Notes under the pieces: generated by a model
The model's input: the letters and a program-made list of their open reading frames with translations, nothing else
Databases searched by the model: none
What the model was told of the DNA's origin: nothing
Position numbers and translations under genes: made by a program
NCBI GenBank assembly: GCA_023251675.1
Contig: JAHEYJ010000001.1
Span: forward strand, 1,671-65,670
From: Bacteroidota bacterium
Lineage (GTDB): Bacteria > Bacteroidota > Bacteroidia > Palsa-948
Direction: 5' to 3'
Length of the DNA: 64,000 bases
Shown here: piece after piece, positions 8,075-28,973 of the stretch
Layout of the letters: the number at the start of each line of letters is the position of its first letter
Numbering within the stretch: position 1 is the first letter of the stretch

Positions 8075-10042
8075 CTATTTGTTCTGAGCGCCGGCTGCAA
8101 TTTCTAATTCGTTAATTGTATTTTCTTCAACAGCAATTCCCTTTTCTTTCGCAGTGAGCAGATCCTGTAACGCTTCGGCATATTTACCCATCCCTTTATA
8201 AGCAAGCGAACGGTTGGTGTAAGCGCCGTAATTATCGGGTTTCAGTTCAAGGGATCTTGTAAAATCATTCACCGCTTCCTGGTATTTACCGCTCATGCTT
8301 AAAATAATTCCGCGGTTGTTGTACGCCTGTCCGTTATCCGAAGCAAACTCAATGGCTTTATTGATATCACTGAGCGCTTCCGGAAGATGATCGCTTTTTC
8401 CGTATGCTTCGGAACGGGCATAATAGCCTTCCCCGCTTTTGGGCTGCAGCTCAATGATCTTTGTAAAATCTTTTATCGCGTTTTCAAAATCATTTCTCTG
8501 AACATACATGGTGCCGCGGCTGAGGTAATTGGTATAATCATCGGGATGAAGTCGTATCTCTTCGGAGAAGGATCGGATGGCTTCATCGGTTTGCTTCAGG
8601 CGCTGGTGTACCAAACCTTTGTTGCGCCACGCTTTCGGATATTTTGGTTTCAGTTCTACCAATGAAATAAAATCTTTCAGCGCTTCTTCGTTACGGCTTG
8701 AATCCGTAAGAACAGCACCGCGGTTGGTATATAAAATGGCTGCTTTGTATCCGTTGTCAATGGCATCGGTATAAAGCCGAATGCTGTCGTGCCACACCTT
8801 TGTCCGCTGAAAGGTCAGGTAACAGAAAAACACCAGGTAAACAGCGGCAGCGGCAGTTGCAGTTTTATTTGTTATAAAAGGCGAAAAATAATACGCCGCA
8901 ATAAAAAATAATCCGATTGATGGAATGTATGTGTAGCGGTCGGCATACAAGGCATCACCGATGGGAAGGAGCTGAAGAACAAGAACAATGGTGATGAGAA
9001 AAAAGGCCGTTCCGAATAAGACCACTTTCGAATCACGAAAATATTTCCAAATGAGGAACGCAATAGCAAGCAGAACGGCCGGACTTATATAAACCCAGAC
9101 CGTATTGATCTTATCGTTGGTTTCCGGGTAAGGATAAAAGCAAGAAAGATTAATCGGAAGAATAATCTTGTGCAGATACGTCATCAAAGCATAGCAGGAA
9201 AAAAGGATCCGTTCGTAAAAAGGAAAATACTGGAACGTCTGCATGGCGCCGGCTTTCCCCTGGACTTTAATGGCAAGAATTCCGAAGGCAACGGCAAGGA
9301 CGAAGAAAGGGATTTTTTCCAAGATGGTTTTCTTTGTGAGCTTCCGGTTCAACAGAAAATCGACAGCAAAAAAAGTTACAGGAAGCACAACCGCCTGTGC
9401 TTTTGAAAGAAGCGCAAACAGAAAAAGTAAAAGAATCACTCCGACGCGGGCAAGGGACAGTGAACTTTTTTCTTCTTTCAGCGAAGGAGTAGAGATGTAA
9501 ACATACAGCCCCCATAAAAAGAAAAATCCATAGAGCACATCCTTTCGTTCCGCGATCCACACAACGGATTCCACGTGAAGCGGATGAATCCCGAACAACA
9601 AAGCGGTGAGAAATGCGGCCCACCCCCAACCCCTCCCCAAGGGAGGGGGGATTAATTTCTGCACGATCAAAAAAACCAGAAGGGTATTCAGTAAGTGCAA
9701 CAATAAATTTACAAGATGATAGCCGAAAGGATTTAGAGCAAAAAATTTATAATCCAGCATGTAGGAGAACATGGTAAGCGGCTGGTAGTTGCCTACAAAC
9801 TGTTCGGAGAAAATAGTTTTCAGGTTCTCGGCATTGATCGCTTTGATCACCGGATTTTCCAGTACGTACTGTGTATCGTCAAGGTTAACGAATTTGTTTT
9901 GAAGAGAAGGGAAGAAAACAAGAAAGGTAATTGCAAGAACAGCGGGAAGAAAATATTTTTCATATCCTGAAATAAATTCTATTTCAGGTTGGAGTTGTTT
10001 CGAAATGACTTTGGCTTTCTGCTTTGGCTTTGCCATGAGCAA
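8075..10042 (-). CDS. multi-pass membrane protein with C-terminal TPR repeats (TMTC/DUF1736-like)
   Basis: 655 aa. Many N-terminal TM helices. Motif ALLFGIHPLHVESVVWIAERKDVL typical of the DUF1736 loop. Tandem TPRs at the C-terminus. Contains an in-frame GC hairpin encoding PPPLGRGWGW. Confidence 0.7.
   Translation of the reverse strand: MLMAKPKQKAKVISKQLQPEIEFISGYEKYFLPAVLAITFLVFFPSLQNKFVNLDDTQYVLENPVIKAINAENLKTIFSEQFVGNYQPLTMFSYMLDYKFFALNPFGYHLVNLLLHLLNTLLVFLIVQKLIPPPLGRGWGWAAFLTALLFGIHPLHVESVVWIAERKDVLYGFFFLWGLYVYISTPSLKEEKSSLSLARVGVILLLFLFALLSKAQAVVLPVTFFAVDFLLNRKLTKKTILEKIPFFVLAVAFGILAIKVQGKAGAMQTFQYFPFYERILFSCYALMTYLHKIILPINLSCFYPYPETNDKINTVWVYISPAVLLAIAFLIWKYFRDSKVVLFGTAFFLITIVLVLQLLPIGDALYADRYTYIPSIGLFFIAAYYFSPFITNKTATAAAAVYLVFFCYLTFQRTKVWHDSIRLYTDAIDNGYKAAILYTNRGAVLTDSSRNEEALKDFISLVELKPKYPKAWRNKGLVHQRLKQTDEAIRSFSEEIRLHPDDYTNYLSRGTMYVQRNDFENAIKDFTKIIELQPKSGEGYYARSEAYGKSDHLPEALSDINKAIEFASDNGQAYNNRGIILSMSGKYQEAVNDFTRSLELKPDNYGAYTNRSLAYKGMGKYAEALQDLLTAKEKGIAVEENTINELEIAAGAQNK
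9632..9650. repeat. GC-rich perfect hairpin (CCCCTCCC-caa-GGGAGGGG) embedded in-frame in a CDS; encodes PLGRG
   Basis: 8-bp perfect stem seen directly. Same family as the hairpins at 27924 and 28327. Confidence 0.7.
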
Positions 10043-25124: not shown

Positions 25125-28100
25125 ATGAGGACGAATTACGAATGCAAATATTTTCTTGCACTAACTTCTTTTTTCCTTATTTCCCTTTTTCCGTATTCCT
25201 CTTCGGCACAGCGCAATAATTTTCAATCCTATTCTCTCGACCAGGGACTTCCGCAGGCCACCATTTATTGCATCATTCAGGATAACCGCGGCTACTTGTG
25301 GCTTGGTACCGATGGAGGTGGGCTTTGCCGTTTTGACGGGATCCATTTCAAAACCTATGGAAAAAGTGATGGTTTCAACGGGCAAAATATCCGGTCGTTG
25401 CTCCAGGACAGCAAAGGAAGGATATGGGCCGGAACAAAAGATGAAGGCATTGTGGTTTATGACGGCAATAAATTTGTTTCTATAGGAAAGAAAAATGGTT
25501 TGGCGGGCAGCGCCATCCTTTGCCTGCACGAAGATAAAGACGGAACGGTGTGGGCAGGCACGGATGATGGCGGCGTAAACAAGATCACGCCTGTTTTTAA
25601 AGGGAAAAGTTCCGGTCAAACGGTAGTTTCGGCAGTGAAAGATTCCTTTGTAGTAGAAGTTTTTGACGAGAACAAAGGGCTCAGCAGCAATTCCGTATTA
25701 GACATTCACCAGGATAAGGACGGGCATATCTGGCTGGCTACTTTTGGAGGAATAAATGTATTAACGCCCGGCAAAGATTCTGTTTCTATTGATCATTTAC
25801 GCGGCGGAAGAGAAATTCCCAGCGACCAGATCACTTCTGTTACCGAAGAAAAAAATGGAGCTTTGTGGTTTGGCACGTACGATGGAGGCATTTTCCGAAT
25901 CGCTCCCAAAAACGATACTAAAAATTTTAAACTGGATATTCTTTCCCGAAAAGTTACCTCTTTCAGCCAGGAAAACGGGTTCAACGCAAAAACCATCTGG
26001 CGGATTTTTACTTCCGATAATAATGAGCTCTGGTTTGCTTCTGTTGAAGACGGGCTTATCCGCTGTAGAAATACAGCCGCTTCCGATACCGGGAAAAAAG
26101 TATTCGAAAAATATACAGATAAGGAAGGACTGCCGTGCAACCAGATGCTGTGCATCTTTGAAGACAAAGAAAAAAATATCTGGATCGGAACCAACGGTGG
26201 GGGGCTTTGCAAGTTCAACGGAGATATGTTTGCTCATTATTCTGAAAAAGACGGGTTGCCTAGTAACAGCGTTCAGGGAATTGACATGGATTCATCCGGA
26301 ACGCTCTGGTTCGGGACCAGCGGCGGCGGATTGGTTAAAATGGATCTGCGATCGGGCGCACCGGTTTGCAATAACTTTTCGATAAAAGATGGTTTATCGG
26401 GAAACACCATTCTTTCAGTATCTGCCGGGAAGGTCATTCATAATCAGAACCTATGGTCCGCGGTTTCAAACGCCGGTATTTCAAAATACGATGGCAAAAC
26501 CTTTCTCAATTTTTCGGAGCGTGACGGCTTGCTGAACAACAGCGTGTACAGCATTTTCGTTGATAAGAACGGGATCGTTTGGATCGGCAGCAAGGATGGC
26601 ATCAGCCGTTTCGACGGATCGAAATTCCTGAACATCACCATGGAGACCATGAAAATTCCGGATAAAGATGTGAATGCCATCATCCAGGATGAAAAAGGAA
26701 ATCTATGGTTCGGTACCGGCGGCGGACTGGCCCGGTATTCAGGAGACGGAGCCATTACCACGTTTGATGAAGCGGAAGGATTGATGCACAAGGAAATAAA
26801 AGCGCTTGCTGAAGATCCGTTCGGAAATATCTGGATCGGGACCAACAACGGCGGGCTTTACCGTTTCAATGTTTTTACGGATGATTCGATAAAAATAAAA
26901 CTGATCGCTGACGATAGCCTGCTGAGTTCTAATTCCGTTCGCGCCATTATTTTCCTGGATGAAAAAACCACCGGCAACAAGGGAAAAGAAATGGTGGTAG
27001 GGACAGATAAGGGAATTGATAAAATAATTTTTGACGACAAAGGAAAGATCCTGAAGATCAGGAATTATAATGCTACCGACGGATTCATCGGCGTGGAGTG
27101 CAATGACAATGCCATGTACCGCGATGACCAGGGAAATATCTGGATCGGAACGGTGAAAGGGCTGACACGGTTTAATCCCTCAGCGGAAGTGCAGAATACG
27201 AACGCTCCGCAGGTTCATATTACCGATATAAAACTTTTCTTCAAAGATGTGGATTGGAGCTCGCGTGCTGATTCTGTTCTTCCCTGGTTTTCGCTTCCCA
27301 CTTCTTTGCAGCTTTCGTATACGGATAACCACCTGACGTTTGACTATGCCGCCATTTCACTTGGCAATTCACAAAAAATAAAATACCGTTACATGCTGGA
27401 AGGCGCAGAAGAAGAATGGTCGCCCGACCGGAAGGAAACATCGGTAACTTTTTCAGGGCTTTCTCCCGGCAAATACACTTTCAAGGTGATCGCGTCAGGA
27501 GCCAACGGAGTTTGGAATACGCAGCCTGCGGAATTTTATTTCACGATTAACCCTCCCTGGTACCGTTCCATGTTGGCTTACATTATTTACGCGATTGTTT
27601 TAATGGGCGGAACCTATTCCTATTCCAAGATCCGGGAAAGGGCGCTCATCCACGAAAAAAAGATCCTTGAAGAAAAAGTAGTGGAACGCACCGCCGAAGT
27701 GGTGAAACAGAAAGAAGAACTCGAACAGCAAAAACATGTGATCGAGGAAAAGAACAAAGACATCACCGACAGCATCAACTACGCGGAAAAGATCCAGCGT
27801 GCTATTTTGCCCGATCTTGCAAAAATTAAAAAGGCTTTGCCCCAGTCCTTTATTTTATTTGAGCCCCGCGACATTGTCAGCGGAGATTTCTTTTGGTATG
27901 TGGAAGTGAAAGCCCCACCCCGGCCCTCCCCATTGGGGAGGGGGATTGATGACCCCGACTATTTCACTGCAGATTCATCACTTTATCCTGCACTTAAGTC
28001 AAGGGCGGAAGAATTTAGGGATCATCCTACCGAAGCGGAAAATATTGCATGGGAACTTTTAAAAGGAAATAATATTGGTTTTCATATAAGGCGTCAACAC

Positions 28101-28973
28101 ATCATTGGAAAATATATAGTGGATTTTGTAAACATTAAAACAAAAACAGTTATAGAAATAGACGGCGATATTCATGATTATCAGAAAGAAGAAGATGAGC
28201 AGCGAACGAGCTGGCTGAAGAAGCATGGATTTGAAGTTATTCGTTTCAGAAACGAGGAAGTGATAGCAGCGTCAGATGGTTTTGCAGAAAAAGTAATAAA
28301 GGTATTGCAGGAACGCGAACAAAAAGTCCTCCCCATTGGGGAGGATTTAGGAGGGGCTTCTTCCATTTATCTTTTATCCGCGGCGGATTGTACGGGGCAC
28401 GGCGTTCCGGGCGCGTTCATGAGCATGATCAACACGTCGCTGCTCAACGAAGCGGTGAACCAGAAAAAAATTTACCAGCCGAACGAAATACTGGATGAAG
28501 CACGAAGAGGGATCATTACCGCGCTGAAGCAGACGGGCGCTTCCGGCGAACAAAAGGACGGAATGGATGTAAGTATCATTTCGCTTGAGATGAACGGCGA
28601 CACGTGCAAACTTCAATACGCCGGAGCCAACAACTCGCTCTATATAATAAGGAAGGGCGAAACATCGGAACTGGAAGAAATAGATCCCGACCCGATGCCC
28701 GTTGCCATCAGCGACCGTACGGGCGAGTTCACCAACAATGTGATCGACCTTCAGAAGGGCGACACCGTTTATATTTTCACCGACGGTTATGCCGATCAGT
28801 TCGGCGGGCCGAAAGGGAAAAAATTCAAGTATTCCAATTTCAAAAAACTCCTGCTTTCCATCCAGGATAAAAATATGGATGAACAGCACGACATCCTCAA
28901 GAAAACGATGGACGACTGGAAAGGCAACCTCGAACAGATTGACGACATACTGGTAATGGGTGTTAGGATATAG
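25125..28973 (+). CDS. large sensor protein: signal peptide, two-component-regulator beta-propeller repeats, Y_Y_Y domain, TM, coiled coil, PP2C/SpoIIE phosphatase domain carrying an in-frame DUF559 insertion
   Basis: 1282 aa. Repeated …LWxGTxxGGLxxFDG… propeller units. SpoIIE-type C-terminus (…SGDFFWY…, ADCTGHGVPGA, C-terminal IDDILVMGVRI). The homologous paralogue on the minus strand at 58674 lacks ~145 aa between the WY and ADCTGHG motifs. Confidence 0.8.
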   Translation: MRTNYECKYFLALTSFFLISLFPYSSSAQRNNFQSYSLDQGLPQATIYCIIQDNRGYLWLGTDGGGLCRFDGIHFKTYGKSDGFNGQNIRSLLQDSKGRIWAGTKDEGIVVYDGNKFVSIGKKNGLAGSAILCLHEDKDGTVWAGTDDGGVNKITPVFKGKSSGQTVVSAVKDSFVVEVFDENKGLSSNSVLDIHQDKDGHIWLATFGGINVLTPGKDSVSIDHLRGGREIPSDQITSVTEEKNGALWFGTYDGGIFRIAPKNDTKNFKLDILSRKVTSFSQENGFNAKTIWRIFTSDNNELWFASVEDGLIRCRNTAASDTGKKVFEKYTDKEGLPCNQMLCIFEDKEKNIWIGTNGGGLCKFNGDMFAHYSEKDGLPSNSVQGIDMDSSGTLWFGTSGGGLVKMDLRSGAPVCNNFSIKDGLSGNTILSVSAGKVIHNQNLWSAVSNAGISKYDGKTFLNFSERDGLLNNSVYSIFVDKNGIVWIGSKDGISRFDGSKFLNITMETMKIPDKDVNAIIQDEKGNLWFGTGGGLARYSGDGAITTFDEAEGLMHKEIKALAEDPFGNIWIGTNNGGLYRFNVFTDDSIKIKLIADDSLLSSNSVRAIIFLDEKTTGNKGKEMVVGTDKGIDKIIFDDKGKILKIRNYNATDGFIGVECNDNAMYRDDQGNIWIGTVKGLTRFNPSAEVQNTNAPQVHITDIKLFFKDVDWSSRADSVLPWFSLPTSLQLSYTDNHLTFDYAAISLGNSQKIKYRYMLEGAEEEWSPDRKETSVTFSGLSPGKYTFKVIASGANGVWNTQPAEFYFTINPPWYRSMLAYIIYAIVLMGGTYSYSKIRERALIHEKKILEEKVVERTAEVVKQKEELEQQKHVIEEKNKDITDSINYAEKIQRAILPDLAKIKKALPQSFILFEPRDIVSGDFFWYVEVKAPPRPSPLGRGIDDPDYFTADSSLYPALKSRAEEFRDHPTEAENIAWELLKGNNIGFHIRRQHIIGKYIVDFVNIKTKTVIEIDGDIHDYQKEEDEQRTSWLKKHGFEVIRFRNEEVIAASDGFAEKVIKVLQEREQKVLPIGEDLGGASSIYLLSAADCTGHGVPGAFMSMINTSLLNEAVNQKKIYQPNEILDEARRGIITALKQTGASGEQKDGMDVSIISLEMNGDTCKLQYAGANNSLYIIRKGETSELEEIDPDPMPVAISDRTGEFTNNVIDLQKGDTVYIFTDGYADQFGGPKGKKFKYSNFKKLLLSIQDKNMDEQHDILKKTMDDWKGNLEQIDDILVMGVRI
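27924..27942. repeat. GC hairpin (left flank of the DUF559 insertion); encodes SPLGRG
   Basis: 8-bp perfect stem with a 3-nt loop. Confidence 0.7.
28327..28345. repeat. GC hairpin (right flank of the DUF559 insertion); encodes LPIGED
   Basis: 8-bp perfect stem with a 3-nt loop. Confidence 0.7.

Follow-up and report, generated by a model that had tools for sequence, protein, structure and literature searches.

How does a perfect, GC-rich palindrome come to lie in frame inside a membrane protein gene that stays open around it? The question is raised by a 64,000-nucleotide stretch of DNA from a Bacteroidota bacterium (contig JAHEYJ010000001.1 of assembly GCA_023251675.1, positions 1,671 to 65,670), which was analysed as a whole and is called ‘the window’ here. 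A minus-strand gene at window positions 8075..10042 carries a lone hairpin, part of a larger unit that we refer to as the solo, while two hairpins of the same type bound a segment encoding a DUF559 nuclease in another gene of the window. Judged by its sequence, the solo almost certainly belongs to the family of end modules that flank DUF559 elements. In bacterial housekeeping genes, in-frame DUF559 elements with hairpin-plus-G-box ends are widespread and apparently undescribed: no description of such an element was found in open-access papers, and an earlier description elsewhere is possible. As to origin, we lean, if only slightly, towards the solo being a non-autonomous copy of an end module of this nuclease-element family, with the DUF559 nuclease acting on the module as its cis-site. 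The solo itself is probably a neutral passenger; it is the family that is unusual.

The Solo Module

The hairpin occupies positions 9630-9648 and consists of a perfect 8-bp GC stem closed by a 3-nt loop, CCCCTCCC-CAA-GGGAGGGG on the plus strand; as a palindromic core, it has no strand of its own. A first-pass annotation, made from the sequence alone, had read the hairpin correctly and placed it at 9632-9650; its true position is 2 nt upstream. In the minus-strand open reading frame (ORF), it is read as QKL-IPPPLGRGWGW-AAF, with PPPLGRGWGW in frame at aa 132-141 of a 655-aa protein, as had been proposed. The pattern CCCYTCCC-N3-GGGARGGG occurs once in the window, compared with 0.00 times in 100 dinucleotide-preserving shuffles. 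In this window of 43% GC, no GC-rich hairpin of the same type was found besides those at 9630-9648, 27924-27942, and 28327-28345, the last two of which bound the DUF559 segment.

The first-pass annotation had also assigned the solo to the same family as the DUF559-flanking hairpins, and the likeness extends past the stem: between 9620-9660 and the left flank of the DUF559 insert, the shared sequence is GCCC(C)ACCCC..hairpin..GGGGGATTRAT. A covariance model (R1) was built from an alignment (A1) of 25 element ends and the solo. Searched with cmsearch, R1 gives exactly three full-length matches in the window, at 9611-9657 (minus), 27905-27951 (minus), and 28318-28364 (plus). The solo scores 40.7 bits with an E-value of 1.9e-9, covering model positions 1-47 of 47. 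In gene orientation, it reads AATTAAT-CCCCCCTCCC-TTG-GGGAGGGG-TT-GGGGGTGGG-CCGCATTT and is oriented in the host gene like the right-hand end module of full DUF559 elements (hairpin, then G-box), although its sequence is nearest to the left-end subtype. It agrees at 35 of 40 positions, the ATTAAT inner flank included, with the left end of the DUF559 element that L026 carries in its LeuRS gene (Patescibacteria), and at 31 of 38 with the window's own left end.

The DNA fold of the solo hairpin (-11.3 kcal/mol, z -1.0 against shuffles) is not unusual for its composition; what makes the solo significant is its sequence and its place in the family, not how stably it folds. An Rfam search of the solo returned no match at E ≤ 1. 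No direct repeat that would mark a target-site duplication flanks it; alignment with orthologues whose site is empty shows that it stands in place of about 18 nt of the host loop. No second repeat was found upstream of the solo, where the sequence codes for a transmembrane helix of the host, so that it lacks the two terminal inverted repeats of a MITE (miniature inverted-repeat transposable element).

A Discrete Unit Conserved as Nucleic Acid

The module is a discrete DNA unit of about 36-47 nt, larger than the hairpin alone, in which the hairpin is accompanied by an asymmetric G-box, RGGWGGGG or GGGGTGGGG. The right-end form is AARGYCCTCCCC-N3-GGGGAGGR-TTTR-GGWGGGG; the left-end form is its reverse complement, with a C-box (CACCCCAYCCC), two bases, and then the hairpin. 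Across alignment A1, the 8-bp stem is paired in 98.1% of cells, and six of the eight stem pairs show compensatory double changes (CCCTTTCC/GGAAAGGG, CTCTCCCC/GGGGAGAG, CCCTTCCCC/GGGGAAGGG). None of 500 shuffles reached the observed pairing or covariation score, and slid registers were at most 76% paired. In one subfamily, T-A to C-G covariation, in either direction, lengthens the stem to 11-12 bp. Since the encoded peptide varies while the pairing stays, selection acts on the nucleic acid and not on a ‘PLGRG’ peptide.

The boundaries are equally well defined. In a metagenome sample, 28 solos scoring at least 38 bits show conservation that starts sharply at AAG(T/C)CC and stops at GGGG(Y), with unrelated, somewhat T-rich flanks. 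Such shared boundaries between unrelated flanks indicate discrete units rather than ragged deletion stumps. A definition by the hairpin alone was tried and rejected: a scan of viral contigs with CCTCCCCATTGGGGAGG gave 17 matches that resemble ordinary terminators or chance hairpins, share no common flanks, and match only the stem part of the model at 18-22 bits. The definition was therefore changed to hairpin plus G-box. A practical threshold of about 30 bits was set because of two full-length 26-bit matches (at a site where the matched segment is 79% GC) and one 23.7-bit match on a contig of middling GC.

The DUF559 Element of the Window

The full element of the window, at 27905-28364, lies in a plus-strand gene (25125..28973) for a 1282-aa sensor with Reg_prop, Y_Y_Y, and SpoIIE (PP2C) domains by Pfam, between the SGDFFWY and ADCTGHGVPGA motifs. 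Its left end module (27905..27951, plus strand) is made up of the C-box GCCCCACCCC, GG, the hairpin CCCTCCCC-ATT-GGGGAGGG (27924-27942, encoding SPLGRG), and GGATTGAT; it encodes KAPPRPSPLGRGID and matches R1 on the minus strand at 41.7 bits. The DUF559 coding segment follows at 27952..28317 on the plus strand (Pfam PF04480, a Vsr-like PD-(D/E)XK nuclease, E 3e-30). Its reading frame is continuous with that of the host at either end, and the motifs VDF ... E-I-D-G-D-I-H-D-Y-Q-K-E-E-D ... R-F are intact. The right end module (28318..28364, plus strand) reads AAAAAGTCCTCCCC-ATT-GGGGAGGATTTAGGAGGGGC, scores 44.8 bits, and encodes KVLPIGEDLGGAS; its hairpin, TCCTCCCC-ATT-GGGGAGGA, lies at 28327-28345 and encodes LPIGED.

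DUF559 and its relative MTES_1575 are the only Pfam families matched by the insert, which is 154-157 aa long; about 110 aa are nuclease and the rest is module-coded Pro/Gly peptide. Neither a transposase family, as in the autonomous partners of MITEs, nor a Hint or protein-splicing domain, as in inteins, was detected in the insert by Pfam. In the PDB, the nuclease domain has a match in entry 3HRL (E 2e-16), titled ‘endonuclease-like protein’. The motifs VDF, E-x-D-G-D-I-H-D-Y-Q-K-E-E-D, R-T, and R-F do not vary among 15 in-frame copies taken from diverse hosts and phyla, which suggests, from sequence conservation, that an active enzyme has been maintained.

Relatives in Other Genomes

Relatives of the DUF559 insert, fetched from one genome per species, gave 16 loci (L025-L040). 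The domain lies in frame inside a large host ORF in all 16 (17/17 with the window), and inverted modules bound nearly every one of the 17 inserts, with a few ends decayed, for instance the left ends of L025 and L035. Hosts include an orthologue of the window's sensor in a Flavobacteriales metagenome-assembled genome (MAG), with the insertion at the same site and a nuclease 67% identical (L025); LeuRS in Bacteroidota and in Patescibacteria, the latter represented by Saccharibacteria and Uhrbacteria MAGs and one unclassified MAG (L026, L027-L031, L033); acetyl-CoA synthetase, Acs (L032, L036-L040); the tRNA-guanine transglycosylase Tgt in a Zambryskibacteria MAG (L034); and phosphoglycerate mutase (L035). 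Full elements sit a few residues upstream of highly conserved motifs, namely VFTTRPDT in LeuRS, WCTADVGW in Acs, a motif of Tgt, and ADCTGHG in SpoIIE. Occupation of one LeuRS site in both Bacteroidota and Patescibacteria suggests cross-phylum transfer or homing to a conserved site. Some ends are stacked, with two modules at the left end of L026 and two at the right end of L033. As a separate observation, the right end of L035 (6004-6060) has an extra, unrelated hairpin, CCTGCC-GGACG-GGCAGG, between stem and G-box, so the module can itself be the target of further small insertions.

The family extends well beyond these loci. A search of 1.84 billion cluster representatives returned 17,465 DUF559 matches at E ≤ 1e-3. 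Among the best 148 of the 17,465 (representatives of 50%-identity clusters), 74 are at least 300 aa long; in at least 42, the domain lies within a larger protein, one of a variety of enzymes, and is flanked on each side by more than 60 aa. From their flanking motifs alone, the hosts look like LeuRS, SpoIIE sensors, SpoIID-, RecJ-, B12-binding/MetH-, and RsmI-like proteins, and Tgt; others look like glycosyltransferases, DegT-type aminotransferases, and UvrB-, BirA-, and RecQ-like proteins. The flanks of embedded domains are typically SPxPxxGEG ... xGGxG. Free-standing DUF559 genes of about 120-130 aa also occur.

Solo, Paired, and Full Forms

A right-end pattern, CCCNNNGGGGAGGRTTTRGGWGGGG, was used to collect at least 120 stretches of JGI metagenome contigs (684 kb, median GC 0.42), and the forms were counted among model matches of at least 30 bits in the stretches listed; a long open frame means ≥150 aa, or ≥60 aa if cut by a contig end. 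Solos number at least 62 (at least 20 in long open frames) and back-to-back pairs, with a gap of -8 to 57 nt, at least 37 (at least 11). Full elements with DUF559 number at least 8, and at least 8 of them are in long open frames. To these are added at least 5 solos adjoining DUF559 (at least 4 in long open frames) and at least 12 solos at contig edges (at least 4). Thus, among the metagenome matches listed, nuclease-less solos and pairs outnumber full elements.

The forms differ in their relation to genes. All 25 full elements seen (17 plus 8 from metagenomes) lie in long open host frames, with continuity on both sides read directly for the 17, and in-frame translation is required for full elements. 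Among the matches listed, about a third of lone modules are in long open frames and the rest appear intergenic; as several ‘in-frame’ solos sit at the 5' edge of the frame, we estimate that about a quarter of the solos listed are truly intragenic. In sequence not selected for modules (loci of the tetratricopeptide repeat (TPR) gene that hosts the solo and 10-kb flanks of DUF559 loci), most copies are intragenic. The first-pass annotation had posited a class of miniature palindromes that insert without breaking the frame. That description fits the lone and paired units in orthologues of the TPR/PMT host gene, LeuRS, a CN-hydrolase, SpoIIE sensors, and other unrelated genes; it does not fit the roughly two thirds of the listed metagenome matches that lie outside long open frames.

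Intermediates occur at shared host sites. At the SpoIIE sensor site occupied in the window, locus L143 has a left module, 17 nt, and a right module, with no DUF559. The spacer encodes ENEKQK, resembling EREQK at the end of the window's DUF559; the few C-terminal codons retained there point to a nuclease gene that was lost, not to a site still awaiting insertion. In a LeuRS gene, L151, only the right module is present at the site that holds a full element in other genomes. In a loop of the TPR/PMT protein (L2, below), the sister loci L004 and L005 have the right module in the same frame, and L005 lacks 30 nt spanning the left module, an in-frame deletion that provides a direct case of a pair becoming a solo. 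Together, these loci show that the series from full element to pair to solo exists in nature, and L143 and L005 bear out the earlier suggestion that a solo hairpin can be a footprint or minimal form of the larger element.

Several side observations concern the distribution of the forms. Nine viral stretches from IMG/VR (L041-L049) have right-end modules, with 13 solos of at least 30 bits, and lack a DUF559 gene in the vicinity; modules may be carried or spread by DNA of phages or prophages. Intergenic solos (28 in L050-L169) typically have T-rich flanks on both sides, TTTTT-AAGYCC...GGGGY-TTTT, with no fixed duplication to be made out; the flanks could mean that certain targets are preferred, that a short T-tract was duplicated, or that these solos are associated with terminators. 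In L070 (1119-4142) and L122 (6595-7502), single long frames of 1023 and 1243 aa, respectively, hold several pairs, solos, and a full DUF559 element within 1-3 kb, as arrays or nested insertions; similarly, P0163 has TLPQGEG..SPPLEGLGEV repeats on both sides of DUF559.

Encoded Peptide and Reading Frame

No stop codon interrupts the core of the module in any of the six frames of the solo or of the GGGTTTGGG subfamily; for the GGATTTAGG subfamily, four of the six frames are open. Each frame gives a Pro/Ser/Leu-rich stretch followed by a Gly/Arg/Glu/Trp-rich one, i.e., SPLGR, PPLWGG, LPFGEG, LPKGEG, SPKGR, or PPQRGG, and actual host ORFs use five of the six frames, with modules in the same orientation as the host (11) and in the opposite one (12). 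The P-L/I-G-R/E-G resemblance that had been remarked on is present in the window, where the three hairpins encode PPPLGRGWGW, SPLGRG, and LPIGED. Similar peptides arise everywhere from the composition of a C-run, a loop, and a G-run, and the shared motif is therefore no evidence for frame-specific insertion. Being ‘in frame’ is thus a property of survivorship: the unit is stop-free, and only net changes by multiples of three are retained.

The Host Gene and Its Orthologues

The host of the solo (8075..10042, minus strand) is an intact gene; its product, a membrane protein of 655 aa, is PMT_2-like in its N-terminal part and has TPR repeats at the C-terminus. The Pfam scan finds TPR families only, so the DUF1736 label initially given to it was not reproduced; some homologues match PF13231 (PMT_2). 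An identical protein (100%, P0001) is encoded on a 325-kb metagenome contig. The module codes for aa ~130-143 (IPPPLGRGWGWA) in a loop, L1, ahead of the conserved LLFGIHPLHVESV motif.

Homologues had been predicted to have a short loop here, which is true of about 85% of some 115 aligned orthologues (KKL-SGND-LVAF). A minority have inserts of +4 to +8 aa at the solo's codon, making L1 a recurrent insertion site. In the window protein, 12 element-coded residues stand in for about 6 host residues, a net gain of 6 codons. At the same codon, P0024 has a decayed version, ATCCCTCTCCCTGCTGGGAGGGGCAAGGGGTGGGCG (19 bits), and P0009 another with no model match. Other orthologues have different short GC-rich inserts at L1, such as CCCTT-CGG-AAGGG in P0022. 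In a neighbour-joining tree calculated with the loops left out, insert carriers are scattered, and the window protein groups with the empty-site proteins P0002 and P0021.

Insertions are also concentrated in a second loop, L2 (about aa 180-215), where L004, L006, and L002 have pairs of left and right modules and L005 has a near-perfect solo of 46.8 bits. In the window itself, positions 9440-9493 (aa ~183-200, STPSLKEEKSSLSLARVG) align with the L2 modules of L004, L006, L002, and L005. This resemblance is one of protein alignment only, as R1 gives no match there even with filters off; the segment may be the remnant of a decayed module.

Origin of the Solo

Having no coding capacity of its own, the solo is non-autonomous. 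The full element has a single gene, for the DUF559 nuclease, which is translated as an inserted domain of the host protein. In the explanation that we favour, the module would be the cis-acting site of this nuclease, by analogy with the repetitive extragenic palindromes (REPs) acted on by REP-associated tyrosine transposases (RAYTs). The nuclease would cut the palindrome or a position close to it, and in the repair of the break, or by gene conversion, single modules would be copied, deleted, or left behind, yielding in turn full elements, paired modules, and solo modules. That no target-site duplication was seen at the solo and that host nucleotides were lost there fits such a repair-based route rather than cut-and-paste transposition. 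The placement of full elements near conserved motifs and the site shared by two phyla both fit homing-like targeting of conserved DNA. The solo would persist in its gene because the loop is tolerant, its composition is stop-free, and only changes by multiples of three survive.

A more far-reaching proposal is offered tentatively, as a possibility short of a probable one. The solo may be the smallest form of cis-site in a class of mobile elements that has not been described before. In this class, a Vsr-like DUF559 nuclease, lacking a promoter, an intron, and an intein, would be produced as a domain permanently inserted, between linkers, into essential enzymes (LeuRS, Acs, Tgt, RecJ-, UvrB-, and MetH-like proteins, and others). 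By acting on the hairpin and G-box, the nuclease would copy itself, nuclease-less doublets, and single modules within and between genomes, in either direction between Bacteroidota and Patescibacteria, and seed Pro/Gly-rich loops into proteins.

Several points weigh against a copied, nuclease-served module. The three copies in the window are only about 75-85% alike and give no sign of very recent spread within the genome, and no presence/absence polymorphism was observed between near-identical strains, so current mobility is unproven. We know of no lone PD-(D/E)XK nuclease able by itself to catalyse strand transfer. Judged from their sequences, the decayed copies in P0024 and P0009 would also fit one old insertion plus several losses, and the tree, star-like with short internal branches and without support values, does not decide the question of a single origin. 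Nor can the history of the solo be read directly, as no orthologue has a larger element at L1. Finally, the recurrence of modules at two loops could reflect loop tolerance rather than targeting.

Alternatively, the solo could be purely a remnant of deletion: a pair or full element once present in the L1 loop would have been trimmed in frame to a single, decaying module that was never mobile. We regard this as rather unlikely, even though trimming of the kind is documented from full element to pair at the SpoIIE site (L143) and from pair to solo by the 30-nt deletion (L004/L005), the LeuRS gene of L151 has only a right module where others hold full elements, and decay is seen in the copies that L001 (19 bits) and L002 (no match) have at the orthologous position. 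None of the approximately 115 orthologues has a pair-sized or full insert at L1, however, and solos elsewhere end sharply at the stem base, with no ragged end points and without the upstream C-box that hairpin-to-hairpin recombination would leave. Solos are also more numerous than pairs and full elements among the metagenome matches listed, and the window copy retains a perfect 8-bp stem although its nearest relatives in the tree are empty sites.

The opposite order of events, in which the solo is a landing pad, appears improbable. Here, the DUF559 nuclease would cut the palindrome and repair from a full element would copy the nuclease gene in; that solos are potential future sites of full elements is equally improbable. 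A module on both sides of full elements would indeed provide homology for such repair, ends are sometimes stacked (L026 left, L033 right), and solos and full elements occupy identical host sites in LeuRS and SpoIIE sensors. Yet the arrival of solos at new sites is left unexplained, and the codons in L143 that resemble the DUF559 C-terminus (ENEKQK compared with EREQK) point to loss of the nuclease gene.

Selection by the host, with the PPPLGRGWGW loop or an mRNA or DNA hairpin (e.g., an internal terminator or attenuator) being functional and the resemblance to DUF559 flanks convergent, is very improbable. The host ORF is intact, and a lenient scan calls the plus-strand (antisense) hairpin terminator-like, with a weak T-rich tail. 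Against this, the segment is missing from about 85% of orthologues, the closest ones included; similarity runs past the palindrome into the G-box and inner flank; the module also occurs in unrelated genes and intergenic DNA; and there is neither a T-run on the sense strand nor an Rfam match. An intrinsic terminator was rejected for the gene, since the sense-strand stem is followed by TTGGGGGTGGGCC, with no T-run, and only the antisense strand has the weak tail.

A chance GC-rich palindrome has next to no probability: a C-run followed by a G-run folds well by composition alone (z -1.0) and a query of 17 nt, limited to the hairpin, also retrieves unrelated hairpins from viral contigs, but the exact pattern occurs 0.00 times per shuffle, the full-length match has an E-value of 1.9e-9, and only three such matches exist in 64 kb, the other two bounding a DUF559 gene.

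Comparison with Known Systems

The preferred reading, a non-autonomous end-module copy served by the DUF559 nuclease, has partial counterparts in four known systems. The closest in placement are the Rickettsia palindromic elements (RPEs), which, according to the summary in PMC10969869 of work by Ogata et al. (2000 Science, 2002 Genome Res), are about 100-150 bp long and occur in frame in many unrelated genes, in Rickettsia only. Like RPEs, the module is a short palindromic repeat in frame in unrelated ORFs, translated as a tolerated extra peptide. Unlike them, it is 36-47 nt long (about 90 nt as a pair), occurs in MAGs of Bacteroidota and Patescibacteria, and serves as terminal repeat to an element that encodes a nuclease, whereas RPEs have no known nuclease or autonomous partner. 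Judged by the description of RPEs, the two are probably unrelated in sequence.

REPs and their inverted doublets (REPINs), served by RAYTs, are closer in architecture. Both systems have an imperfect palindrome (20-40 nt in REPs) with a short asymmetric box, are multi-copy and non-coding by themselves, occur as singlets and inverted doublets, and include a nuclease gene flanked by inverted repeats. REPs carry a GTAG or CGTC head (PMC3733652), which the module consensus, AAGYCCTCCCC-N3-GGGGAGGRTTTRGGWGGGG, lacks; its box is RGGWGGGG or GGGGTGGGG, and its partner is a DUF559 PD-(D/E)XK nuclease instead of a HUH Y1 transposase. Unlike extragenic REPs, many module copies, including every full element seen, lie inside ORFs in frame. 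Similar to a MITE, the paired form is a short, non-autonomous derivative sharing terminal inverted repeats with a coding element, as L143 and the window show at one site. Unlike MITEs, the family has no DDE or other transposase and no target-site duplication was seen, and the solo is a single end repeat.

Inteins and Vsr-like/EDxHD homing endonucleases (PMC2677866, Dassa et al. 2009; PMC9403480; PMC3424549) provide the last comparison. As with these, DUF559 elements lie in frame, immediately ahead of highly conserved motifs of conserved enzymes, at the same site across phyla, and their nuclease fold family is known to include homing endonucleases. They differ from inteins in having no Hint or splicing domain, no intron, and hairpin-bearing terminal inverted repeats, and the DUF559 insert apparently stays in the mature host protein. 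One Vsr-like/EDxHD homing endonuclease, I-Bth0305I, was reportedly described by Taylor et al. in 2011.

In-frame palindromic DNA in protein genes has so far been seen mainly as a peculiarity of Rickettsia. Comparable palindromes are now found in free-living Bacteroidota and in Patescibacteria, together with a candidate enzyme partner, which offers a testable system for selfish DNA that colonises coding sequence without splicing. They also show one way in which proteins can acquire new loops; in the TPR/PMT membrane protein family, two loops have been hit repeatedly.

Annotation of Interrupted Genes

The family accounts for many ‘SPxPxxGEG / LPxGEDLGG’ peptides, for split or over-long gene calls, and for odd ‘endonuclease domain-containing’ annotations in metagenome-derived proteins; in annotation, the module model can be used to flag insertions and restore the host protein. 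Many of the database ‘proteins’ P0121-P0239 bear annotations as fragments of endonuclease, RecG, or LeuRS although they result from mis-calling parts of host genes that elements interrupt. For instance, P0129 combines DUF559 with an AMP-binding domain, P0186 with LeuRS, and P0198 with an RNase H-like domain, while P0128, P0193, and P0200 join DUF559 to an unidentified host C-terminus (precomputed Pfam PF14667).

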